Virus record (IMG/VR): IMGVR_UViG_3300045988_163663
Reading direction: 5' to 3' (one strand)
Source of the DNA: a virus
DNA length: 64,000 nt
Positions 3,998-58,410 of the stretch are shown piece after piece; positions within the stretch are counted from its first letter, which is position 1; every line of letters begins with the position of its first letter. The notes below the pieces were generated by a model. The model was not told the origin of the DNA and did not search any database. It saw nothing but the letters and a program-made list of their open reading frames with translations. The translations under genes were made by a program, and so were the position numbers.

Positions 3998-4165
3998 ATG
4001 ACTGACCGCGAAGCCCTCGACCAAATTCTGGAACATCTGAATGGGAACTTGCAATCTATTGTTGCTGATGAATCAACATATGTCGAAATTGAGAACGCCT
4101 GTTTAGGCGAAGACATTATGTTTGAATTTGACAAAAATGGAAATATTTTGTCAATCGGTTCTTGA
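3998..4165 (+). CDS. hypothetical small protein
   Basis: 55 aa ORF MTDREALDQ... Confidence 0.4.
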   Translation: MTDREALDQILEHLNGNLQSIVADESTYVEIENACLGEDIMFEFDKNGNILSIGS

Positions 4166-19107: not shown

Positions 19108-20517
19108 ATGTATAATGTATATGTTTGTAAAGTAAAAAACATTAGACCTGCGGAGAATGCTAATCGTCTGAATGCCTGTGAAGTATTTGGTATTACTACC
19201 ATTGTTGATAAATCCGTGAATGAAAATGACCTCTACGTCTATTTCCCCACGGATGGTCAAATTAGTGAAGAGTTTGGTAAGGCAAATGACCTCTTCCGCC
19301 GCAAGGATGAGAATGGTAATCCGGCGGGCGGTTTCATTGACCCTGTGAAGCGTAATATTGGTGCAATTCGTCTTCGCGGTAATAAGTCCGAAGGTCTTAT
19401 CCTTCCACTTACTTGCCTTACACCTTTTGGTGACATCAGTAATCTGGCCGAAGGTGATATTGTATCTACCTTCAATGGTCATGTAATCGCCGAGAAGTAT
19501 GTGCCGATGCATAAGCCCAGAGTTTCAGAGTCTACTGCACGCGGCGAACACAACCATAAGTCTGCAAAGAAATGCCGCATTAAGTATCCATTCTTCGCAG
19601 AACATATTGATACTCCCCAGCTTCGTTTTAATATGGATATGTTTAAGCCGGGCGACATTATCTGCTTGACCGAGAAGGTCCATGGTACCAGTTCTCGAAA
19701 CGCATATCAGACTGCAATTGTTGGCGAAAACGGTTTCTTCCTTACCAAGCTTATTGCACATAGCAACTGGCTGCCGAAGAAGTGGCGTATGTCCGCACAG
19801 TCTCACCTTACCCCTAAAACTGAAATGCGTTATCTGATTGGTACTCGCCGCACTGTCCTTACTAACAATAGCACCGGCGGCTTTTATGACAATGATGACT
19901 TCCGTAAGGCTTGGGGCGAGCGTTTCAAGGGTAAGCTTCTGCCTAATGAGGAATGCTTCGGTGAAATTGCAGGCTTCTACAAAGATAATTATGGCGGTGC
20001 AGTTCCTATCATGTCTCGTGGAGATAATACTAAAACAAAAGATAAGCAATTTATTAAGCAGTATGGTAAGACTACCACTTTCTCTTATGGATGTACTGAA
20101 ACTGGTTATTACACTTATGGTGATGGTACTCATGAAGAAAGACCGCTTAACCGCTATTTTGTTTACCGTATGACTTATACTACTCCTGAAGGTGTAGTAA
20201 TTGAATATCCTTGGGACCTTGTTAAGCAGCGTGCAGAACAGATGGGTTTTGAAACTGTGCCTGAACTGGAACGTTTCATCTACACCACTGAAGAGGATTT
20301 CCTCGCACGGATTGCCAAGTATGAGGATATTCCTTCTACGATTGATTCTTCTCATGTAATTGAAGGTGTAGTTATTCGCAAGATGAATGGTACACGTTTC
20401 GACGTTGCAAAAGATAAATCTTATAATTTTAAGGTACTTGAGAATCTAATTAAGGTTGATGCCGAAGTGCCGGACATGGAAGAAATTGAAGAAGAAATGA
20501 CTCTGGAGGATAATTAA
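19108..20517 (+). CDS. RNA ligase (Rnl2-like nucleotidyltransferase)
   Basis: LTEKVHGTSSRN matches T4 Rnl2 motif I KIHGTN; EGVVIRK...KDK resembles motifs IV/V. Confidence 0.55.
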   Translation: MYNVYVCKVKNIRPAENANRLNACEVFGITTIVDKSVNENDLYVYFPTDGQISEEFGKANDLFRRKDENGNPAGGFIDPVKRNIGAIRLRGNKSEGLILPLTCLTPFGDISNLAEGDIVSTFNGHVIAEKYVPMHKPRVSESTARGEHNHKSAKKCRIKYPFFAEHIDTPQLRFNMDMFKPGDIICLTEKVHGTSSRNAYQTAIVGENGFFLTKLIAHSNWLPKKWRMSAQSHLTPKTEMRYLIGTRRTVLTNNSTGGFYDNDDFRKAWGERFKGKLLPNEECFGEIAGFYKDNYGGAVPIMSRGDNTKTKDKQFIKQYGKTTTFSYGCTETGYYTYGDGTHEERPLNRYFVYRMTYTTPEGVVIEYPWDLVKQRAEQMGFETVPELERFIYTTEEDFLARIAKYEDIPSTIDSSHVIEGVVIRKMNGTRFDVAKDKSYNFKVLENLIKVDAEVPDMEEIEEEMTLEDN

Positions 20518-26045: not shown

Positions 26046-27203
26046 ATGAGTTATTTATTTACCAGTGAAAGCGTTTTTGCCGGTCATCCTGATAAGGTTT
26101 GTGATTAGGTAAGTGATGCTATTCTGGATTATGTCCTCCAGCTTGATCCTGATGCACGAGTAGCTTGTGAATGTACTATTAGCCCAGGCATCTTCCATAT
26201 TATGGGAGAGATCACAGCTAAAACAGAACAATCTATTCCTTATCAGGAAATTGCAAGAGAGACTTTAAGATTTATTGGTTATGACAATGATGAAGCAGGA
26301 TTTAACTGCGACACTTGTTCATATATTATTAATGTAGTAAATCAATCCCCTGACATCGCTGCGGGTGTTGATAGGGATGGTGCTGGCGACCAAGGCATGA
26401 TGTTTGGTTATGCAACCAATGAAACAGAAAATTATATGCCTATCGCTCAGCAACTTGCTAACAATATCTCGGTCATTATGTTTAGTAAGTATAAAAATGA
26501 TTTGCTACCTTGGGCATTACCTGACGGCAAATGCCAGATAACTGTCCAATACGATGATGATGGCAACTTTGAAGGGGTAGATACAATTGTCGTATCGGCC
26601 CAACACAAAGACAAGTATAGTATTAAGGAAATAACGCCCGATATTACGAACATTTGTAATATTGCCCTTCAAGGTTATGCCATTAAAAAAGATTGTAAAT
26701 TTTATATTAACCCAACAGGTAAGTTTGTGAAGGGCGGTCCCCAGGCTGATACTGGATTAACAGGACGTAAAATCGTTGTAGATACATATGGTGGCTACGC
26801 TCCGCATGGTGGTGGAGCATTCAGTGGCAAAGACCCCAGTAAGGTAGACCGTAGTGGTGCATATATGGCACGTTATGTAGCTAAAAATCTTGTAGCTTCT
26901 GGCGTTTGCGATAAGTGCATGATTCAAGTTGCTTATATCATTGGGCAGACAGAACCTGCATCTATTGATATTAATTGTTTTGGCACAGAGAAGAAACCTA
27001 TTGCTGAAATTCTTGATGCAGTTAATCAGACATTTGATTTTGCACCACGCAGTATTATTCATAAATTTGATTTAAAGCATACTCGTTATCTGCCCTATGC
27101 TTGCTTCGGTCATTTTGGTCGCATTGAATGCAATAGCCCTTGGGAACAGCTCGATAAAGTAGAAGAATTAAAAACAATTTTTGATTTTAAAAAGGAGAAC
27201 TAA
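26046..27203 (+). CDS. metK: S-adenosylmethionine synthetase
   Basis: FTSESV..GHPDKVCD(TAG)VSDAILD aligns to MetK HPDKIADQISDAVLD; GDQGMMFGYATNET and GGGAFSGKDPSKVDRS motifs. Confidence 0.8.
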
Positions 27204-29169: not shown

Positions 29170-29582
29170 GCAAGGTAATGTCTGGTCCAGGCAATCCTTT
29201 TGTATTTAATCAGATGGATTTTTTAATGGGTCGTATTAAGAAAGAAGACACATTAAATAAATACCATATGCTTCTTAAATCAGGCAGAGTTATTCTTGAA
29301 GACTATTGGTGTTGGCATGGTCATGAATGGTATAAAGCATTAGTTAAATGTCTTAATGATTTTTATATTGTAATTATATCAGAAATAGATGTAATTAGTA
29401 TAGAAAGAATAGAAAATCCAACAGTAGATTCTATCTATATGGAATATATATTGGCAAGCAGAATGAGAGGAGATGAAGTTGATGGCGACTCTATATATGA
29501 TGTGCGGCTTGAGTGCAAATGGAAAGACTACATTCGCGAAATCCTTCGCAAAGATGAATCACATCCGGTATGTAAACCCTGA
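29154..29582 (+). CDS. hypothetical protein
   Basis: ORF 142 aa; 3' end overlaps kinase gene by about 110 nt in another frame. Confidence 0.35.
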   Translation: MEFDMSKVMSGPGNPFVFNQMDFLMGRIKKEDTLNKYHMLLKSGRVILEDYWCWHGHEWYKALVKCLNDFYIVIISEIDVISIERIENPTVDSIYMEYILASRMRGDEVDGDSIYDVRLECKWKDYIREILRKDESHPVCKP

Positions 29583-30018
29583 TGAATTGTATGCTGTCTT
29601 TAATGGTGATGAATGCAACCGTAGTCATAAGTTCGAAGTTTGGCAGACATTGTATCAGATTGTACATTGTGCAGAACTGGACAATGCAGATATTATCATT
29701 GATACTAACTGTTTGACTCTTGGACAGAGAGAAGAAATCAGAAGCCGTTTCCCCCATTTCGATAACTATCAGCTTATGGTTATTATTGCTAGCGTAGAAA
29801 ATTCAAAGGAATGGAACTCCCAGAGACATAGAGTAGTGCCGCAGCAGGAGCTTGAACGGCAGGCACGTATTGTAGACTGGCCTAATTTGACTGACCATTA
29901 TAATGGTTGGAATAATATTAGATATTATTATAATGATGGCTCTCTGTTTACTAAATATCGTGAAATTTATGATGGTGAAGACCATGACTTGCGGCAGGAG
30001 AAGGAGGATAATAAGTAA
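29473..30018 (+). CDS. P-loop polynucleotide kinase-like protein
   Basis: GLSANGKTTFAK Walker A and IIDTNCLTLGQRE resembling T4 Pnk ISDTNLNPERR. Confidence 0.55.
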   Translation: MKLMATLYMMCGLSANGKTTFAKSFAKMNHIRYVNPDELYAVFNGDECNRSHKFEVWQTLYQIVHCAELDNADIIIDTNCLTLGQREEIRSRFPHFDNYQLMVIIASVENSKEWNSQRHRVVPQQELERQARIVDWPNLTDHYNGWNNIRYYYNDGSLFTKYREIYDGEDHDLRQEKEDNK

Positions 30019-36619: not shown

Positions 36620-37431
36620 TAATTATGAATTACCATTCAGATAAATGGGTTATGGATAAGGTAGAAACTCATTTAGAAGCAGCTAATATTAGAAGCGAAA
36701 ATTGGGTTAGTTTAATGGCTTATGGTAGCCAGAATTATGGTCTTGATACTCAAAATTCTGATGTAGATACCCGCCTTATTGTTCTTCCTTCATTTGAAGA
36801 TATTGTATTGAATAAGAAGCCGGTATCTTATACCAAGATTCTTTCTAATGATGAACACATTGATTTTAAAGATATTCGTTTGTTCATTGATTGTTTGAAG
36901 AAACAGAATATGGCTTATCTTGAATGTATCTTCACGCCTTATAAAATGGCATCAAGTACGTATTGGAATGAGTGGCAGGCACTGCTTAATGAGCGTGAAG
37001 CTATTGCACGCTATAATCCTTACAAGGCAGTTAAGACAATGAAGGGTATTGCTATGGAAAAATACCATGCAATGGAACATAGATATCCTACTAAGGCCCA
37101 TCTGATTGATACATATGGTTATGATAGCAAGCAGCTTATGCATCTGCTTCGTATTGAAAGATACCTTGGACGTTATATTGATGGTGTTAAATATGCAGAT
37201 TGTCTTCAAGCCCCAATGGGTGATTATCTTCTTGATGTAAAAAATTATCATTATAATCTTGAAACTGCACGAATTGTAGCCAATACTGCTATTAGTAATA
37301 TTACAAGAGTAGCTGATGATTATTGTTCTAAGACCAAGGATGAAGGTAATGAAGAGCTTGAAGATTTTATGAATAAGATTGTTTATCTTATTATGAAAAA
37401 AAGAATTGTAAAGGAAATGTTAAATGTCTGA
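36616..37431 (+). CDS. Pol-beta superfamily nucleotidyltransferase
   Basis: YGSQNYGLDTQNSDVDTRLIV = GS-x9-D-x-D NTase signature. Confidence 0.5.
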   Translation: MIIMNYHSDKWVMDKVETHLEAANIRSENWVSLMAYGSQNYGLDTQNSDVDTRLIVLPSFEDIVLNKKPVSYTKILSNDEHIDFKDIRLFIDCLKKQNMAYLECIFTPYKMASSTYWNEWQALLNEREAIARYNPYKAVKTMKGIAMEKYHAMEHRYPTKAHLIDTYGYDSKQLMHLLRIERYLGRYIDGVKYADCLQAPMGDYLLDVKNYHYNLETARIVANTAISNITRVADDYCSKTKDEGNEELEDFMNKIVYLIMKKRIVKEMLNV

Positions 37432-37628: not shown

Positions 37629-38408
37629 ATGTTCAAGGACTGGGTTGTCCGAGGCGATTGTCATGGCGATTTCACATGGCTTAACGCAAGAATGTTTAGA
37701 ATTTTAAATCCAAAAGACTACGCAATTATTATCCTTGGTGACGTAGGTTTCAATAGTGGCAATACATTCCGGGATGATATGAAGAAAAAGTATGCAAGCC
37801 AGTTTGGATATTCTATCTATTGCGTGCGTGGTAACCATGAGGTACGTCCTGAGAATGTTGAAGGTATGGAACGCATTTGGGATAGTAATGTCCAAGCTAA
37901 CGTATGGTATGAGCCGGCCTACCCTTTGATTAAATATTTTGATAATTATGGGGTTTATTATCTTAAAACAGAAGATAGAGAATATCGCACGTTGGTCATC
38001 TGCGGGGCTTACTCTGTTGATAAATATTACCGTCTTAAAAATAATCTGCTCTGGTGGGAAGATGAGCAGTTGACTGATGCAGAGAAGTCAGAAGTAGAGA
38101 GACTTATTCGGCAGACTAACAAGCATTTTGACCTTGTGCTCTCGCACACTTGCCCTTATTCTCTTAGGCCAGTTGATAAATTTCTTTCAGTAGTAGACCA
38201 ATCTACTGTAGATACATCTATGGAAGAGTGGCTTGAAACTATTAAGAATATGATTACATATGATGTATGGCTTAGTGGGCATTATCATGTTGACCGATTT
38301 ATCAATAAGCATAATATTCTCTATTTTAATTGCATTGACTCATTAGAGGATATTTTTCTCTGGCATGATAAAATGGATGATACTGTAAATAACATTGACC
38401 GCATCTAA
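37629..38408 (+). CDS. calcineurin-like metallophosphoesterase
   Basis: GDCHGD, ILGDVGFN, VRGNHE motifs. Confidence 0.65.
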   Translation: MFKDWVVRGDCHGDFTWLNARMFRILNPKDYAIIILGDVGFNSGNTFRDDMKKKYASQFGYSIYCVRGNHEVRPENVEGMERIWDSNVQANVWYEPAYPLIKYFDNYGVYYLKTEDREYRTLVICGAYSVDKYYRLKNNLLWWEDEQLTDAEKSEVERLIRQTNKHFDLVLSHTCPYSLRPVDKFLSVVDQSTVDTSMEEWLETIKNMITYDVWLSGHYHVDRFINKHNILYFNCIDSLEDIFLWHDKMDDTVNNIDRI

Positions 38409-48615: not shown

Positions 48616-48689
48616 TAAAAATTAATATATAATATATATACAAAATAAAGAAAATAAAGACTTTAACAGCAAAGAAATGGACAGTAAAT

Positions 48690-48733
48690 CCGTCGCGAAT
48701 GCTACGCAGGTTCGAATCCTGCCCTCCCCACCA
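48690..48733 (+). ncRNA. tRNA 3'-half-like element (T-arm, acceptor 3' strand, CCA) without upstream 5' half
   Basis: GCAGG-TTCGAAT-CCTGC CCTCCCC A CCA; GGCGGAGG 6 nt downstream; own upstream promoter motif. Confidence 0.35.
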
Positions 48734-48884
48734 CTATATGGCGGAGGTAGGGAAGCGGTTAAACCCAGCGGAACCAAACCAAATAAGTCTTGTTTGAATA
48801 AAATAATTATTTGATTTTTAATAAAAAATATTATATAATATTTATATGAAAAGAGAAAGGCTTTTACAGCAACTTAAACTTTTT

Positions 48885-48959
48885 TCCGTGGTCGAATAAC
48901 TGGATAATTCATCAGAGTTAATTCTGAAAATAAGGATTCAAATTCCTTCCTTGGAGCCA
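48885..48959 (+). tRNA. noncanonical tRNA (6-nt anticodon loop GTTAAT)
   Basis: Acceptor TCCGTGG/CCTTGGA (1 mismatch), D arm GAAT..ATTC, anticodon stem TCAGA/TCTGA, T arm AAGGA-TTCAAAT-TCCTT, GCCA end. Confidence 0.4.
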
Positions 48960-49050: not shown

Positions 49051-49199
49051 GCTCTCGTAGCTCAATTGGTCAGAGCCGGCGACTTATCCAAAATTAGTTT
49101 AAATGGTAAAATAGTTTATGCGCAAGAAAGATGTAAGTTCAAATCTAACATTTTGGGCCAAATCGCCAGATGTGGGTTCAAATCCCGACGGGAGCACCA
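49051..49199 (+). tRNA. tRNA with about 80-nt insertion in anticodon loop
   Basis: GCTCTCG-TA-GCTCaattggtcaGAGC, anticodon stem GGCGA(49078)...TCGCC(49163), T arm and acceptor CGGGAGC-A-CCA. Confidence 0.5.
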
Positions 49200-51141: not shown

Positions 51142-51218
51142 GGGACAGTAGCTTACGAGGTCGGAGCATTGGTCTGAAAAACCAAAGGATGGAGGCTCGA
51201 TACCTCCCTGTCCCACCA
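51142..51218 (+). tRNA. tRNA-Phe (GAA)
   Basis: GGGACAG/CTGTCCC acceptor, anticodon loop CTGAAAA, CCA encoded. Confidence 0.65.
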
Positions 51219-51500
51219 ATTGGTCTTACACATGGGGTTTCCGATTTGAACTAGGCAGATTAGTCACCTGCCGTTGGCAATAGACCAATTAAAAATAAAC
51301 TGAGGCAAAGGGAAATCGGGTAGTTATGATGAACTTCATAATGAAATCCTCTTGTAATCAAGCTAATTGGGAGAGAGGTAGCACGGGAACGGGGAGAAGC
51401 GTGCTATAAAAGGTGAAATACTTCTTTCCACCATAAGCCGGTGTAGCCGAATGGCATAGGCGAATGGAATTGAACTGAAAATTTTTTGGTTCAATTCCAT
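51219..51500 (+). ncRNA. structured RNA candidate
   Basis: TTGGTCT...AGACCAA, GGCAG-9-CTGCC, TAGCACG-14-CGTGCTA, GGAATTGAAC-13-GTTCAATTCC; no ORF. Confidence 0.3.
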
Positions 51501-51548
51501 TAATGAATAATTTTTAATTTCTAATATATTATGAAAGGAGAGATTGTT

Positions 51549-52016
51549 ATGGCTCGTTCAGATATTTTAGAAAAAGAAAAAGAAATTCGTTAGTGGATAA
51601 ACGAAGAAAAATCTAAACGTTATATATGTGAATAGTTGCATTGTAAACCTGAAACTTTAAATTCTTATTTGGAGAAAATGAATATTGAATATAAGGGATA
51701 GCCTTATAAAAAAGGATAGAATAAAAATCCTCGATGTTATAAGCCAGCTATTTATTATATTGATAATCATAAGTATATTAGCTCTTCTGTTTTAAGACAA
51801 AAATTAGTAAAAGATGGATTGAAAAAAGACAAATGTGAAATTTGTGGTATTTCTATGTGGCAAGGAATTAAATTACCTTTAGAATTACATCATAAAAATG
51901 GAAACCATTTTGATAATGATTTAAATAATCTACAAATTTTATGTCCTAATTGTCATTCAATTCAAAATGGAAATAGTGGAGCAAATATCGGTAAATACGC
52001 GGGATTGCTGGAATAG
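51549..52016 (+). CDS. HNH homing endonuclease (TAG-containing)
   Basis: CEICG...HHKNGNHFDNDLNNLQILCPNCH; 5 in-frame TAG upstream. Confidence 0.55.
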
Positions 52017-52083
52017 GTAGACAACTCATCTTTAGACGGTGAGGCCGACAGGTGTGAGGGTCCGAGTCCCTCATCCCGCACCA
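51999..52083 (+). tRNA. tRNA-Leu (TAG anticodon), type II
   Basis: GCGGGAT/ATCCCGC, anticodon loop TTTAGAC, long variable arm, CCA. Confidence 0.6.
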
Positions 52084-52373
52084 ATCATATTCAAAAGAAA
52101 AATTATTGTTGTGATTGTGGAAAAGAGATATGTTTAAAAGCTATTAGATGTAAATCTTGTGCATCTAAATTTAGACAAAATTCTAAATCTCCAGATAGAG
52201 AAATTTTAAAAGAATTAATTAGAACTACACCATTTGTAACTATAGGGAAAATGTATGAAGTTTCTGATAATGCTGTCAGAAAATGGTGTAAAAATTATGA
52301 TTTACCTTATTAGTCATTAAAAATTAAAAAAATTTCTGATGAAGATTGGAAAAATATTTAATATATAAGGTGT

Positions 52374-52401
52374 GAAGGTTCGAATCCTTTCACCGGTACC
52401 A
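52374..52401 (+). ncRNA. tRNA 3'-half-like element
   Basis: GAAGG-TTCGAAT-CCTTT CACCGGT A CCA; no 5' half found. Confidence 0.3.
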
Positions 52402-52469
52402 ACAGTGAAGTAGTAGCTATACTCATTATAATCAAGGCTCGGTGGTTGGTGGCTCCATCGTTATGTAAA

Positions 52470-52546
52470 TAAGCCATATGTATATTACTTCTTGGTGTAA
52501 TGGAAGCATACTGCCTGAAAGAGGCGGAGGTATTGGTTCGATCCCG
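52470..52546 (+). tRNA. tRNA-like gene, unresolved
   Basis: T arm ATTGG-TTCGATC-CCGAT at 52522; anticodon-like CTGCC-TGAAAGA-GGCGG; acceptor pairing imperfect. Confidence 0.3.
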
Positions 52547-52894
52547 ATAGAAGGAGTAATTAAAGCTAGGAAATGATAATCGCCTAAATAAATAAAGGAT
52601 TATTATTAAAGATTATTTAGATTAAGGAAGCGGTTAAAGTTATTACTTACTTGATTATAAAATAACATGACCGCAAGACGAGTGTTTGAAGCTTGTCTAT
52701 AAACAAATTCTTCATATGTTGTCTTTTATACTTACTCTTTGGCTGTTTCTTGACATATAAGTAAAAGCGGAAAGGGAGTTAAAGGTTCAGCTAAAAAACC
52801 GGTTTGTTTTTTGATAAGATTTTAAAAATTAGGTGGCAAAATCTTATTTGAGTGACGCTGCTCAAGAGGGTCCGGAACCTCTAAAATGCGATAT

Positions 52895-53027
52895 GCGCCA
52901 GTGGCCAAGTGGTATGGCACCTGCCTTTGTGGAATTGATGTAAGTAGCATTTTAATGTATTGGTTCAAATCCAATATTCCGCACCATAAGCAGGGCAACG
53001 CGGGTTCGATCCCCGCCTGGCGCACCA
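52895..53027 (+). tRNA. tRNA-Gln-like (UUG) with about 58-nt insertion in anticodon loop
   Basis: GCGCCAG...CTGGCGC-A-CCA; D arm GCCAAGTGGTATGGC as in tRNA-Gln; CCTGC(52920)+CTTTG ... AA+GCAGG(52990) gives loop CTTTGAA after removing insert. Confidence 0.5.
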
Positions 53028-53233
53028 TTTGAGTTAAAAAGTATAAATCTTATAAACTCCCTGTAAAATCAGGCGGACAGATGGACCGATAGTACCATTA
53101 TTGTGGAAGTCAGGCAGGTCCATTTTACTGGGCTTACTGTAAAAGCCAGTTTAATACACCCTCCATACCCAATGAGGAATTTTTATAAAGGTCTATTTAA
53201 TTTTTCTTGGTAGTTTAGTTAAATAGACTGTAT

Positions 53234-53310
53234 GCGGGATTAGCTCAGTTGGTTAGAGCGTTTGGTTTACACCCAAGAGGTCATTGGTTCGAATCCAATA
53301 TCCTGCACCA
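53234..53310 (+). tRNA. tRNA-Val (TAC)
   Basis: Canonical cloverleaf, loop TTTACAC, G3:U70, CCA. Confidence 0.65.
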
Positions 53311-53376
53311 ATAAATTTGAAAATTTAAAAAAAATATTATATAATATATATATAATAATAAAGGAGATATTTGAAA

Positions 53377-53543
53377 TGGCAACTACTAAGAAACCTGCAA
53401 TTAAAATGGACAGCACAGAGTTGAACGAGTATCTTCTGTTCCGCCGTCGTAGATCAATTGTGCCTGCCAAGAAAGGTAAGGGCATGGAATATGATAGAGC
53501 GAAGGAAAAAGAAAAATCTGAAAAAATGATTTCTGATGAATAA
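53377..53543 (+). CDS. small basic protein
   Basis: AAAGGAGAT RBS; MATTKKPAIK... Confidence 0.4.
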
Positions 53544-53547
53544 ATAT

Positions 53548-53620
53548 GCTCCCATCGACAAGTGGTCTAAGTCACCAGCCTTTCACGCTGGAGTCGCCGG
53601 TTCAAATCCGGCTGGGAGTA
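53548..53620 (+). tRNA. tRNA-Glu (TTC)
   Basis: GCTCCCA/TGGGAGT, loop CTTTCAC, T arm GCCGG-TTCAAAT-CCGGC; no CCA. Confidence 0.55.
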
Positions 53621-53704
53621 GAGATACAAATTCTACAACCTTCACGCGGTGTATCTTGTTTTAACTAATGTAGAATAAAGTAAATAAAAAGGAGCTGTTT
53701 AATT

Positions 53705-54328
53705 ATGGCATACATTTATTAGATTATTAATGATATAAATTAGAAAATTTATGTTGGTAAAACTGAATTTTCTATTGAAAAACGTTTTAAAGAACATTGT
53801 AAAGATGCTTTTAGAGAGCGCAATGAAAAACGTCCATTATATTCAGCAATGCGAAAATATGGAGTAGAACATTTTCATATTGAACTAATTGAAGAAACTG
53901 ATGATGCTAATAATCGAGAAACTTATTGGATTGAAAAATTAGGTTCTTTTAAATGGGGATATAATGCTACAATAGGCGGAGATGGTAAAAAGTATCTTGA
54001 TTATGATTTAATTATTGCTTCTTATCAAGAAATTAAAAATATTGAAGAAACTGCTCGTAAATTAGGAATTTCTTCTGATAGTGTAGAAAGAATTCTTAAA
54101 GAAAAAAAAGAAAAAATTTATTCTCAACAAGAAGTTAATTTAGTTAAATCAGGTAAAAAAGTTGCTCAATGTGATAAAAAAACTGGAAAAATTTTAAATA
54201 TATTTCCATCTATTGGAAGTGCAGGTAGAGCTATTAATAAACCTGATATTACTCATATAAGCGCTGTATGTTTAGGTAAAAGACAAAGTGCTTATGGTTA
54301 TAAATGGAAATTTATTGAAAATAATTAA
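53705..54328 (+). CDS. GIY-YIG homing endonuclease (TAG-containing)
   Basis: MAYIY(TAG)IINDIN(TAG)KIYVGKT aligns with I-TevI GIYQIKN...KVYVGS, putting TAG at Gln. Confidence 0.6.
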
Positions 54329-54342
54329 AATTATTCTTATAT

Positions 54343-54419
54343 GGTGCTATAGTTCAGTTGGCTAGAATGTCGGACTGTCTCTCCGAAGGTCAGGGGTTCG
54401 AGTCCCCTTAGCATCGCCA
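54343..54419 (+). tRNA. tRNA-Asp (GTC)
   Basis: Loop CTGTCTC, T arm AGGGG-TTCGAGT-CCCCT, GCCA end. Confidence 0.65.
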
Positions 54420-54511
54420 TTCGTTTTCTCGATATAAGCGATTTTGTTACATAGAACTTGATAGAGCGTTCTATTAATCTGGTTAGATTAAGTTTTATAA
54501 CTATCATATTT

Positions 54512-54587
54512 GGGGCACGGGACTGCATGGAGTGGTCGTCTCCCTTGCAAGGAGAAAAGCAGATGAGTTCGATTCTCATGTGTTCCA
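54512..54587 (+). tRNA. tRNA-Ala (TGC)
   Basis: G3:U70, loop CTTGCAA, T arm ATGAG-TTCGATT-CTCAT; no CCA. Confidence 0.55.
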
Positions 54588-54726
54588 GTCATCTAAGATC
54601 CACAACCGCCACGAGGTAGATGATGGGTAATGCTAATAGTGGACAAAAATAAAAATCGGGCAAAGTTAATTAAACTCCTCAAAAATTTTGCTAAATATAA
54701 TAGAAGGAAAAAAGGAGTTGAATTAA

Positions 54727-55359
54727 ATGCCTAGAAAATTAACTCAAGAAGAATTTGAACAAAGAGTTTATAAATGTGTAGGGGATAAATATTTTGTTAT
54801 AAGTGAATATAAAGGAAAATCTAAACCAATAGATTTAAAATGCAATATTCATGATATTGTTTTTCAAGCATCCGCAGAATGTTTTATGCGAGGTCCAAAA
54901 GAAGTAAGATGCTCTTGCCCTAAATGTTCAGAAGAAAAGAAAAATGAAAAATTTTCTGCAAATAGAACTGAATTAGAATGTGCTTATTGTGGAAAGAAAT
55001 TTATTCGTCCAAATTCTAAATTGAATAATTCAAAAAGTGGAATATATTTTTGCTGTAGAGAACATAAAGATTTAGCTCAACGGATAGAGTTTGGTTTGAA
55101 AGAAATTCAACCAAATCATTATGGAAATAATATTGAAAGTATATATACTTATCGTAAAAATGCTTTTAAATATTATCCTCATAAATGTGCTATCTGTGGT
55201 TGGGATGAAGATAAAGATATTTTAGAAGTTCATCATATTAATGAAAATAGAGAACACAATGAATTAGAGAATTTAATCATATTATGTCCTATTTGTCATA
55301 AAAAATTAACTTCTCATAAATATAAATTAATTAATAGGGAAAAAATTATTTCTTATTAA
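54727..55359 (+). CDS. HNH homing endonuclease
   Basis: CAICGWDEDKDILEVHHINENREHNELENLIILCPICH. Confidence 0.6.
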   Translation: MPRKLTQEEFEQRVYKCVGDKYFVISEYKGKSKPIDLKCNIHDIVFQASAECFMRGPKEVRCSCPKCSEEKKNEKFSANRTELECAYCGKKFIRPNSKLNNSKSGIYFCCREHKDLAQRIEFGLKEIQPNHYGNNIESIYTYRKNAFKYYPHKCAICGWDEDKDILEVHHINENREHNELENLIILCPICHKKLTSHKYKLINREKIISY

Positions 55360-55382
55360 TTTATGAAAAATTTATAATATTT

Positions 55383-55425
55383 GGAGCTTGAGGCAAAGCG
55401 AGTTCGACTCTCGCAAGTTCCACCA
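55383..55425 (+). ncRNA. 43-nt tRNA-like minihelix (acceptor stem + T arm only)
   Basis: GGAGCTT-gaggcaaa-GCGAG-TTCGACT-CTCGC-AAGTTCC-A-CCA. Confidence 0.3.
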
Positions 55426-55477
55426 TTAAGTGTGATATATTCCAAACACGTAGGGTGGTAAGCACACGGGTTTTCTA

Positions 55478-55553
55478 GAAGCCTTCCCTATGAATATGGA
55501 TGCATAGCTCAGTTGGTAGAGCAATTGACTGTTAATCAATGGGTCGGAGGATC
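55478..55553 (+). tRNA. tRNA-Asn (GTT)
   Basis: GGATGCA-TA-GCTCAGTTGGTAGAGC, loop CTGTTAA, GCCA end; unusual T loop ATCATAC. Confidence 0.6.
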
Positions 55554-55677
55554 ATACCCTTCTGCATCCGCCACCGCACTCGCGGAAAACATACAACTCA
55601 ACTGGTGCATAGAACTTGATGGAGCGTTCTATTAGTCTGATGCCTGCATTAGATTAAGTTTTATAACCATCATATTT

Positions 55678-55751
55678 GGGGACATAGTTTATGGTAGGAA
55701 AACGTTGAATTTAATTCAAAGTCGAGGGTGCGATTCCCTCTGGCTCCACCA
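55678..55751 (+). tRNA. tRNA with anticodon loop ATTTAAT (UUA), shortened 15-nt anticodon arm
   Basis: GGGGACA-TA-GTTT..AAAC, TTGA-ATTTAAT-TCAA, T arm GAGGG-TGCGATT-CCCTC, TGGCTCC-A-CCA; one acceptor mismatch. Confidence 0.35.
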
Positions 55752-55885
55752 TTTATGAAAGACAATACAGCAATTATAAATTTGCTTTGGGAGCCGTGTG
55801 TTGTAGGTTCGAGTCCTACTGTCTGGTTGAAGATCGGATATAGCGTAATTGGTAGCGCAACGTATAAAAATTGTCTTGTTAATAT

Positions 55886-55961
55886 TGCGGGATCGTCAAG
55901 TGGTTAAGACACCAGCCTCATAAACTGGTTATCGTGGGTTCGAATCCCACTCCCGCAACCA
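55886..55961 (+). tRNA. tRNA-Met (CAT)
   Basis: TGCGGGA/TCCCGCA, loop CTCATAA, T arm GTGGG-TTCGAAT-CCCAC, CCA. Confidence 0.55.
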
Positions 55962-56085
55962 TATGAAAAGCCCACACAGCAATTTTTAATAAGGTTAAAT
56001 AAGAAATTCTGCAAAAATTTTTTAGAGTTGGTTCAAATCCAGCAAATGATTTTAGGGCTTTGTTAAAATTGTTAAGGAGAAAATA

Positions 56086-56271
56086 ATGAAGTTCAATCCA
56101 GGAGATAAGGTCTGGTGTAAGAAGTATGGCAAGGGTAAGTGCCGCAAGACTGATGATAAGGACAATTTCATGACTTATCTTTTCAGATTTTATGATGGTA
56201 CTCTGATTTGGATGCCAAAACGTCAGGCTGAACATTTTGTAAGAGTTCGTTCCACCGAGGCCACGGTGTGA
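56086..56271 (+). CDS. small basic protein
   Basis: ORF 61 aa, AAGGAGAAAATAATG RBS, TGA stop. Confidence 0.4.
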   Translation: MKFNPGDKVWCKKYGKGKCRKTDDKDNFMTYLFRFYDGTLIWMPKRQAEHFVRVRSTEATV

Positions 56272-56430
56272 ATATAAAGTCCGGTTATAGGAAATCCTGT
56301 CATTAGGCGGCAGGCTACCGGTAATCCTTTCTTATATATTTAAATATGTAAGGAACAAAAACTATACAATAGATAGAGTTTTTACGCCTTGGCGCAATGC
56401 TTGTTTTTTACTATCTATTTTTTTATATTC

Positions 56431-56517
56431 GGAGTCGTGGGATAATGGTATTCCAATGGATTGCTAATCCATCCTACCTCTTGGGTAGTCCGCGTTCGAG
56501 TCGCGGCGATTCCGCCA
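56431..56517 (+). tRNA. tRNA-Ser (GCT), type II
   Basis: GGAGTCG/CGATTCC, loop TTGCTAA, 17-nt variable arm, GCCA. Confidence 0.6.
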
Positions 56518-56523
56518 TTATAT

Positions 56524-56611
56524 GTAGGAGTGCCAGAGTGGTCGATTGGGTTAGTCTCCAAAACTAATTGTAGCTGCACATCCAGGGTTCGAATCCCTTG
56601 CTCCTATGCCA
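56524..56611 (+). tRNA. type II tRNA with apparent CCA anticodon (Trp-reading?)
   Basis: GTAGGAG/CTCCTAT-G-CCA; anticodon stem TTAGT/ACTAA, loop CTCCAAA; 14-nt variable arm. Confidence 0.4.
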
Positions 56612-57336: not shown

Positions 57337-58410
57337 ATGGCTGAAATTATTAAGTTAAGACGCGGTAAATCAACCAGTTGGTCTAAAAAGAATATAATTC
57401 TTGCAGCTGGTGAAATCGGCGTAGAGCTTGATACACATTAGATTAAAGTCGGCGATGGTTCAACCCCTTGGAATGAACTATCTTATGTAGGCGGAACTAA
57501 AGTTGTTAATGTTCAAGAATACACTGACAATCCAGCAGTTGTAGATGGCGTGCCTTATCAATCTATTGATGTAGCATTTATGAAGGCTCCAGCTGGAAGT
57601 ACAATTCGTCTTAATGCTAACTTTGATAACAGTGTTTCTATTGATAAAGAATTAACTATTGAATTAAATGGTAATGATATTATCAATAATGAAAAAACTC
57701 CAATAGATATCAAAGTAGGCGGCGATTTAACTATCAAGGGCCAAGGCACTATTGAATGCAATAAAAATAATAATGCCGCAGTTTTTAATAATGGTAATAT
57801 TACTATTAATAATGGTAAATTACAACGTACTACTGACGTATCAGGTAATGGCTATTATACTGCCGTTAATCATGGCACTATGATAATCAATGGCGGCATG
57901 TTTATGAGCGGCGGTGAATTTTCCAGTATGATTGAAAATGGATACTGGGATTATAATGCCGGTAATACTACAAACGGCTATGTTCAAGGTCAAAATGCTG
58001 AAATGCCTACATTAACTATTAATGATGGTACATTCGCTGGCGGCTTATATGCTATAAAAAATGATGATAATGCTGTTTTAAATATTAATGGCGGCACATT
58101 CTATAATACTATTCTTGCTAATGGTAAGTCATTGACTATCACTGATGGATATTTTGAAAATAGTAAACCAAGTCAAGGTGAATATAATTTATATCTTCGT
58201 AAATTAAGTGAAGATATAAATCCTCAAAATACATATATCAGTGGCGGCACATTTATTACTGCACAAGATAGCAATTTCAAAGTTGAAGGCGAACCGCATA
58301 TTGAAATTAGCGGTGGCCGTTTTAATAGAGAATTAGATCCTTCTTATCTAGCTCCTGGCTATAGACAAGTACTTGTCAATGGCTTCTATACTGTCTAGAA
58401 GGAGGAATAA
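57337..58410 (+). CDS. tail-fibre-like protein with shared N-terminal module (TAG-containing)
   Basis: MAEIIKLRRGKSTSW...GEIGVELDTH(TAG)IKVGDGSTPW; beta-helix-like GG repeats; TAG at 57439 and 58396. Confidence 0.5.

Follow-up and report, generated by a model that had tools for sequence, protein, structure and literature searches.

The gene at 55678-55751 of a 64,000-nucleotide stretch of viral DNA (IMG/VR record IMGVR_UViG_3300045988_163663, the whole stretch being called "the window" throughout) encodes a real phage tRNA, which is conserved among related phages, carries an alanine-type acceptor end and presents an anticodon loop that can be read as UUA. It appears to be under purifying selection and does not have the build of a standard suppressor. 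The reading that we favour, tentatively and from sequence comparison, is that of a probably alanine-accepting, ochre-type accessory or otherwise non-standard tRNA, and not of the essential decoder of TAG as glutamine. The window belongs to a phage that has reassigned TAG to glutamine, and its tRNA array is devoid of a CUA tRNA, yielding instead two conserved tRNAs with U-U-A in the loop that ARAGORN misses by default. Which of these, if either, decodes TAG, and what would an alanine-type UUA tRNA be doing amid TAA stop codons?

Structure and conservation of the tRNA at 55678-55751

The sequence-only reading of this DNA had described a cloverleaf with a 15-nt anticodon arm whose sole 7-nt loop reading is A-U-UUA-A-U, and the description agrees with the sequence and with the ARAGORN drawing. 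Against RF00005, positions 55678-55748 score 48.5 bits (E = 4.6e-8 in an 11.5-kb search; the gathering score is 29 bits), as compared with 60-72 bits for the neighbouring tRNAs of the array. At its default settings ARAGORN reports 12 tRNAs in 51142-56611 and misses this gene as well as a second one at 48885; that reading had advised scoring with the program, which calls both candidates once its threshold is relaxed, the gene at 55678-55751 as tRNA-Stop(tta).

Written element by element, the 5′ half reads GGGGACA UA GUUU AUGGUAGGA AAAC G UUGAA UUUAA UUCAA A, and the 3′ half GUC GAGGG UGCGAUU CCCUC UGGCUCC A CCA (Table 1). The acceptor stem is made of G1-C72, G2-C71, G3.U70, G4-C69, A5xG68, C6-G67 and A7-U66, then A73 and a CCA that is encoded in the gene, as it also is in the 48885 gene. 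In the anticodon arm, the 15 nt found between G (55704) and A (55720) are two short of the normal length. According to the covariance model, five base pairs enclose a loop of 5 nt, whereas ARAGORN has a G.A pair and four base pairs closing the 7-nt loop. A32 and U38 are indeed able to pair, leaving the 5-nt loop UUUAA, and free-energy folding goes as far as six base pairs and a UUA triloop, with z-scores of about -0.2 that give no support either way. The molecule thus departs from the canonical 5-bp stem and 7-nt loop, on account of its short arm, and from the canonical U54-U55-C56, position 55 being a G. If the A32-U38 pair is open, the whole ochre-type set is present: U33, U34-U35-A36, a purine at position 37 and a 7-nt loop. 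An ARAGORN intron model, tRNA-Lys(ttt) at 55678-55827 with a 69-nt intron, was rejected: it entails two G.G mismatches in the acceptor stem and shows no covariation in the relative L003.

Table 1. Positions of the two U-U-A-loop tRNA genes, their parts and associated features in the window
Feature	Position	Strand	Remark
RNA ligase, PF09414 with PHA02142 OB-fold	19108-20517		ORF match
AAA_33 P-loop kinase-like domain	29473-30018		ORF match
RlaP, RNA-repair-pathway Pol-beta nucleotidyltransferase	36625-37431		ORF match
Calcineurin-like phosphoesterase (metallophosphoesterase)	37629-38408		ORF match
Sigma-70-type promoter match TTGATT-17-TATAAT	48811-48839	+	Consensus scan 10/12; consensus match only
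Second tRNA gene, encoded CCA, non-canonical	48885-48959	+	Rfam, ARAGORN relaxed
tRNA gene, encoded CCA, non-canonical	55678-55751	+	Rfam RF00005, ARAGORN relaxed
Acceptor strands	55678-55684 and 55741-55747	+	G3.U70, A5xG68
D-arm	55687-55703	+	
Anticodon arm	55704-55720	+	
7-nt loop reading A32-U33-U34-U35-A36-A37-U38	55709-55715	+	Anticodon UUA at 55711-55713
T-arm	55724-55740	+	Loop UGCGAUU, G55
A73	55748	+	

Relatives were gathered by protein and pattern searches and comprise contigs of 105-188 kb plus several metagenome contigs; no close relative was found among GenBank phages, and the pattern of the 55678 tRNA is absent from the bacterial genome collection searched. Both tRNAs recur in independent assemblies of related phages. 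In the most diverged relatives, L003 and L019, the 55678 tRNA is identical at 72 of 74 positions (97%), while the same comparison gives 58% identity for tRNA-Asn, 84% for the upstream spacer and 40-62% for the downstream RNA, making the tRNA the most conserved segment of its neighbourhood. Among 17 copies, the only substitutions are G26A, G57A in the T-loop and C71U, which keeps a G.U pair, and all of these changes preserve the structure. The anticodon arm is the same in every copy, save for the change of G26 to A, and the alanine-type pattern G3:U70, A73 and G1-C72/G2-C71 is kept in all 17. Taken at the level of sequence, this pattern of conservation indicates selection and not decay.

That the gene is instead a tRNA pseudogene, decaying in the wake of an array turnover driven by homing endonucleases, is therefore very unlikely in our view. 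Such turnover has left tRNA 3′ remnants next to HNH genes (a tRNA-Ala at 55397-55428 and a tRNA with anticodon UAG at 52373-52403), the gene is deleted in one relative and its Rfam score lies below those of its neighbours, yet a decaying sequence would hardly stay 97% identical, with structure-preserving changes, between lineages that have diverged both in its flanks and in the tRNAs next to it.

The homing-endonuclease genes themselves, of the HNH/GIY-YIG kind, are scattered among the tRNAs at 51531-52361, 53705-54328 and 54727-55359, and several contain in-frame TAG. Both HNH genes are followed by their tRNA remnant, made of a T-arm, an acceptor strand and ACCA, and the corresponding tRNA alleles are found intact in relatives, which suggests cassette replacement. 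A tRNA-Leu(UAG) at 51999-52083 lies inside an HNH reading frame.

The relative that has lost the gene is IMGVR_UViG_3300029858_000001 (157 kb), where a deletion joins the 5′ two-thirds of the 55678 tRNA to the 3′ end of tRNA-Met. The T-arm and acceptor strand are removed together with the downstream RNA and most of tRNA-Met, so that the acceptor and T stems are broken, and pattern searches of this contig give no intact second copy. Its structural ORFs nonetheless contain 2-8 in-frame TAGs each, and it keeps a tRNA of the 48885 type (L022). In this contig, a single one, in-frame TAG is hence used where the 55678 tRNA is missing, and this is the strongest argument that the tRNA is not the essential TAG decoder; the loss could be an assembly artefact, or could be compensated elsewhere in that genome.

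Genetic code and the search for a CUA tRNA

When TAA and TGA are taken as the only stops, 85 ORFs can be counted in the window, 31 of which contain in-frame TAG (81 codons in total). In the MetK-like ORF at 26046-27203, a TAG occupies the invariant Gln of the CDQ.SD motif. Across orthologues on related contigs, 27 TAG sites could be aligned, at which 18 non-TAG codon types were counted, 9 of them CAG/CAA and 4 AAA/AAG; glutamine codons being the most frequent alternates, the earlier claim that TAG is recoded stands. So does the claim that TAA still terminates genes: the ORFs end with TAA in 59 of 85 cases and with TGA in the other 26, and no in-frame TAA was found in the window. The best same-frame pair for TAA readthrough, at 58408, turned out to be an ordinary gene boundary with a Shine-Dalgarno site (AAGGAGG, TAA, ATG), conserved in relatives, and the long TGA-containing frames of the first 20 kb, considered as a sign of TGA recoding, are runs of separate short ORFs ended by TGA. 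The code of the phage is TAG for glutamine, with TAA and TGA as stops.

An anticodon UUA that reads UAA, and UAG by wobble, is textbook behaviour for an ochre suppressor, and the wobble argument of the sequence-only reading is in line with it. Because TAG is sense here and TAA is stop, the code predicts a decoder with C34, or else something that uncouples UAA from UAG.

A CUA tRNA was sought in the window with ARAGORN (default, relaxed and intron settings), with Rfam and by scanning for unassigned T-arms, and none was found, leaving the 55678 and 48885 tRNAs as the window's only stop-anticodon candidates, as had been stated before. Their loops, AUUUAAU and GUUAAU, lack the anticodon CUA of an amber suppressor. 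The homologous arrays of all relatives yielded no CUA tRNA either. The suggestion that one might be sited in the remainder of the genome could be followed in relatives over the 10 kb that flank the window on its left and about 28 kb on its right, with none detected; in the larger related genomes, roughly 80 kb lies beyond the stretches covered. The stretch on the right includes a second tRNA array, some 18-20 kb beyond the window end, again without a CUA tRNA. It contains Thr, Pro, Gln(UUG) and Tyr tRNAs and a ROOL RNA in L110; in L116/L117, it contains Thr, Pro, Gln(UUG) and the ROOL RNA, then an odd tRNA, an intron-containing class II tRNA and Gly. The odd tRNA (L116, 4892-4969) has an 8-nt loop, UUUUAUUA, with U-U-A after U33. 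The ROOL RNAs (L110, 20773-21366; L116, 3316-3901) score 320-323 bits with Rfam, and in the class II tRNA of L116 the anticodon loop is interrupted by some 330 nt of inserted sequence.

Several further candidates were discarded. The extra T-arms at 55398 and 52374 belong to 3′ remnants left where HNH cassettes have displaced tRNA genes, and the one at 48706 to a Y-RNA-like RNA; an apparent intron-bearing tRNA-Gln of L008 proved to be a false positive, as it falls within a coding gene. Nested and intron-containing tRNAs were also considered as hidden CUA suppressors, and they are not: removing the inserts (49088-49160 and 52929-52986) restores exact 7-nt loops, CUUAUAA (UAU, Ile-type) and CUUUUAA (UUU, Lys).

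These nested genes are an observation in their own right. In two tRNA genes, at 49051-49199 and 52895-53027, the anticodon loop is interrupted by an insert that is itself tRNA-shaped, complete with a 7-bp acceptor stem, a T-arm, a discriminator base and a CCA. Nested tRNAs are present in L003 as well (4013-4145 and 1008-1156), with compensatory changes in the outer and inner stems, and an uninterrupted tRNA-Lys(UUU) in L001 (5086-5160), L017 and L020 equals the interrupted outer tRNA of L003 at every aligned position. No description of tRNA-shaped inserts in phage tRNAs was found in the literature. The inserts could be intron-like elements, excised through the action of RNase P together with a ligase, or mobile insertions, and they may be more novel than the UUA tRNA itself.

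Acceptor identity and decoding by the two tRNAs

Alanyl-tRNA synthetase (AlaRS) recognises G3:U70 and ignores the anticodon (PMC10543346). The 55678 tRNA has the G3:U70, A73 and G1-C72/G2-C71 of an AlaRS substrate and shares them with the tRNA-Ala(UGC) alleles of the phage family, while the weak 1-72 pair and the G73 of the phage tRNA-Gln, and with them a glutamine-type body, are missing. An A at position 32, and its pairing with U38, are among the exceptions that characterise tRNA-Ala(GGC) and tRNA-Pro (PMC5041475). In this phage G3.U70 is not exclusive to alanine, for tRNA-Val(UAC) at 53234-53310 has this pair, ordinarily confined to tRNA-Ala, together with A73, as does its counterpart in L024, the L003 allele having C3-G70. 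Overall similarity was of no use in assigning an isotype, the best values (at most 73% identity) being to Phe and Asn phage tRNAs.

Since AlaRS is blind to the anticodon, the acceptor end of the 55678 tRNA (G1-C72, G2-C71, G3.U70, G4-C69, A73, CCA) would be recognised by the enzyme, and the likeliest product would be an alanine-charged tRNA presenting UUA. Such a molecule would be an ochre-type reader, taking UAA, and UAG by wobble. Its decoding is expected to be weak, given that the anticodon helix lacks one base pair and that position 55 of the T-loop is a G. It would have an accessory or otherwise non-standard role, reading weakly and in ochre fashion at the very most, if it decodes at all. 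One point speaks against this picture: the conservation is stronger than expected for a marginal accessory tRNA. The proposal that the 55678 tRNA reads TAG has nevertheless fared poorly, in view of its alanine and not glutamine identity, of the C34 that the code predicts and of its loss in a relative that uses TAG; the reservation made at the same time, namely that the suppressor lies elsewhere or that these tRNAs are non-standard, fits the evidence better.

The second tRNA had been described as having a 6-nt loop, GUUAAU, and this is borne out: positions 48885-48956 reach 38.3 bits with the Rfam tRNA model when the small region is searched alone (against the same gathering score of 29), and relaxed ARAGORN returns tRNA-?(ta), with the stem UCAGA/UCUGA. 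The loop, at 48917-48922, takes the place of the canonical 7-nt loop. The tRNA has U1-A72, G73 and a 4-nt variable loop, and is kept in L001, L015, L016, L022, L023 and L024. The tRNA-Gln(UUG) of the phage family, which is encoded in the second array and thus outside the window, has a weak 1-72 pair and G73, so that U1-A72 and G73 give the 48885 tRNA a glutamine-type body; its D-arm, 4-nt variable loop and T-arm are similar to those of the tRNA-Gln(UUG) of L116. Because U1-A72 and G73 are also possible in bacterial tRNA-Asn, we call it "Gln-like", the more glutamine-like of the two candidates on sequence features. A promoter match (Table 1) lies 45 nt upstream, in a region conserved in relatives. 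If any tRNA of the window reads TAG, that at 48885 is a better candidate than that at 55678.

Could the tRNAs with U-U-A loops, one or both, nonetheless be the TAG decoders, through U34.G wobble? UAA would then have to be spared, either kept as a stop by both release factors or disfavoured by a modification or an odd loop biasing U34 towards G. The failure to find a CUA tRNA in the window and, in relatives, in the 10 kb and roughly 28 kb on either side of it speaks for such a scheme, as do the conservation and encoded CCA of both tRNAs, the glutamine-like build and own consensus promoter match of the second, and the U-U-A after U33 in the 8-nt loop of the third odd tRNA, which comes from a diverged lineage. 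In the survey of Borges et al., a TAG suppressor was detectable in no more than about 40% of the TAG-recoded phages, and the authors suspected that non-canonical tRNAs escape the standard finders. We still judge these tRNAs unlikely to be the decoders: U34 reads UAA at least as well as UAG, and TAA ends most ORFs and never occurs in frame; the identity elements of the 55678 tRNA are those of alanine, not glutamine, and the gene is deleted in a TAG-recoding relative; no precedent was found in the literature for decoding with a 6-nt anticodon loop; and a CUA tRNA could be sited in the unsampled portion of the larger related genomes. Quite improbable, to our minds, is the more sweeping proposition that TAG is decoded as glutamine in this phage family with no CUA tRNA whatsoever, by the odd-loop tRNAs at 48885 and 55678 and the 8-nt-loop tRNA, with odd geometry, modification or release-factor balance letting UAG be read and UAA terminate. 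Recoding of this kind, if true, would go some way towards accounting for the TAG-recoded phages, a majority, that have yielded no suppressor tRNA.

Neighbouring RNAs, repair genes and known systems

Directly 3′ of the 55678 tRNA lies a structured RNA (55759-55877), and another (48657-48791) comes before the 48885 tRNA. The two have in common the motif AAAGAC..ACAGCAA and closing stems, AAGACAAU/AUUGUCUU and AAGACUU/AAGUCUU, as well as a permuted tRNA-like core consisting of a T-arm, a closed acceptor-like hairpin and a D-arm, with compensatory changes between relatives. The Rfam family YrlA (Y RNA-like) gives partial matches, of 29 bits here and of 46 bits for a 73%-identical homologue in Enterococcus phages (EA1, L021, 4007-4120), just upstream of a 510-aa vWA/DUF2828/DUF7788 protein.

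A set of genes that look like a heal-and-seal RNA repair system, judging from their ORF matches, is encoded elsewhere in the window: the ligase, the AAA_33 protein, RlaP and the phosphoesterase of Table 1. These could serve in tRNA repair or in the processing of the nested tRNAs.

Both observations have a bearing on whether the 55678 RNA decodes at all. It might be tRNA-shaped and non-decoding, acting as a decoy for anticodon nucleases or other tRNA-targeting defences, or as a processing handle, RNase P and 3′-end cleavage setting the 5′ end of the Y-RNA-like RNA that follows. The structural oddities could mean just this: the arm is 2 nt short and can close to a 5-nt or 3-nt loop, the near-universal U55 is replaced by G55 and the acceptor stem has a mismatch. 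The structured RNA, moreover, is always found directly 3′ of the tRNA and is lost together with it in the deletion variant, and the repair-like set suggests a conflict centred on tRNA cleavage. We find this somewhat unlikely: U33, A37, G3.U70, A73 and CCA, all of them charging or decoding features, are preserved, and the proposal is purely inferential.

The array has other peculiarities. Weak HDV-ribozyme matches at 54588-54655 (24.5 bits) and 53621-53675 (19.4 bits), below the gathering score of 44, begin at the first base past the discriminator of tRNA-Ala(UGC) and tRNA-Glu(UUC), whose genes have no encoded CCA; theta ribozymes in recoded gut phages occur in the same tRNA-adjacent context (PMC10879173). 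A conserved tRNA at 52485-52557 (Rfam 33.7 bits), also without encoded CCA, has the loop UGAAAGA, with G33 and not U33 and the nominal anticodon AAA. Directly after tRNA-Ser(GCU) comes an 88-nt tRNA with anticodon CCA (56524-56611), conserved in all relatives. Its acceptor stem comprises 8 bp, its anticodon stem 6 bp and its T-stem 4 bp; the variable arm is long and the discriminator is G73. This tRNA reaches 38.8 bits with Rfam tRNA-Sec (gathering score 47) and may be serine-type or "allo-tRNA"-like, reading the Trp codon, in which case it would be a second anticodon-swapped tRNA of a class served by an anticodon-blind synthetase.

Among known systems, the tRNA(CUA) of code-15 phages (crAss-like, Lak, Phassvirus and others) is similar to the 55678 tRNA in being an array gene with a stop anticodon, in a genome whose structural genes contain in-frame TAG, that would need a host synthetase. 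It differs in that the 55678 tRNA has UUA, an alanine-like acceptor and a short arm, and is dispensable in one TAG-recoding relative. Published Phassvirus genomes have 2-3 tRNA-Sup-CTA genes (PMC10607447), none of which is seen in the window of this phage.

With the classical ochre suppressors of the E. coli supB, supC, supG and supL class, the tRNA shares UUA, U33 and A37. Those suppressors differ from canonical Gln, Tyr or Lys tRNAs by one base in the anticodon, and the tRNA departs from them by its alanine-type acceptor, its short anticodon helix and its G55. Some phages have genes annotated as tRNA-Sup-TTA, a Klebsiella phage being one example (PMC8386662).

The tRNA-like domain of tmRNA has the same alanine-type acceptor end, ...CUCCACCA, and the permuted Rfam tmRNA model matches the 55678 gene weakly, from the T-arm through the 3′ end to GGAGCC further downstream. 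The 55678 tRNA, unlike tmRNA, forms a complete cloverleaf, D-arm and anticodon arm included, and has no tag reading frame. ARAGORN finds no tmRNA, and the Rfam matches, at 17-24 bits, are below the gathering score of 47; a two-piece or permuted tmRNA in which the T-arm, 3′ end and CCA would pair with the downstream GGAGCCG was rejected, as it scores 23.7 bits and its complementarity is not kept in L003 and L019.

Finally, tRNA-Ala shares G1-C72, G2-C71, G3.U70, G4-C69 and A73 with the 55678 tRNA, and the A32/U38 context is like that of tRNA-Ala(GGC); the anticodon, on the other hand, is not NGC, and identity to the phage tRNA-Ala(UGC) is at most 66%. Mistranslating tRNA-Ala variants can be charged with alanine whatever their anticodon, since AlaRS ignores it (PMC10543346). 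If the 55678 tRNA is charged in the same way, it would represent a naturally occurring, virus-borne tRNA-Ala with a swapped anticodon.
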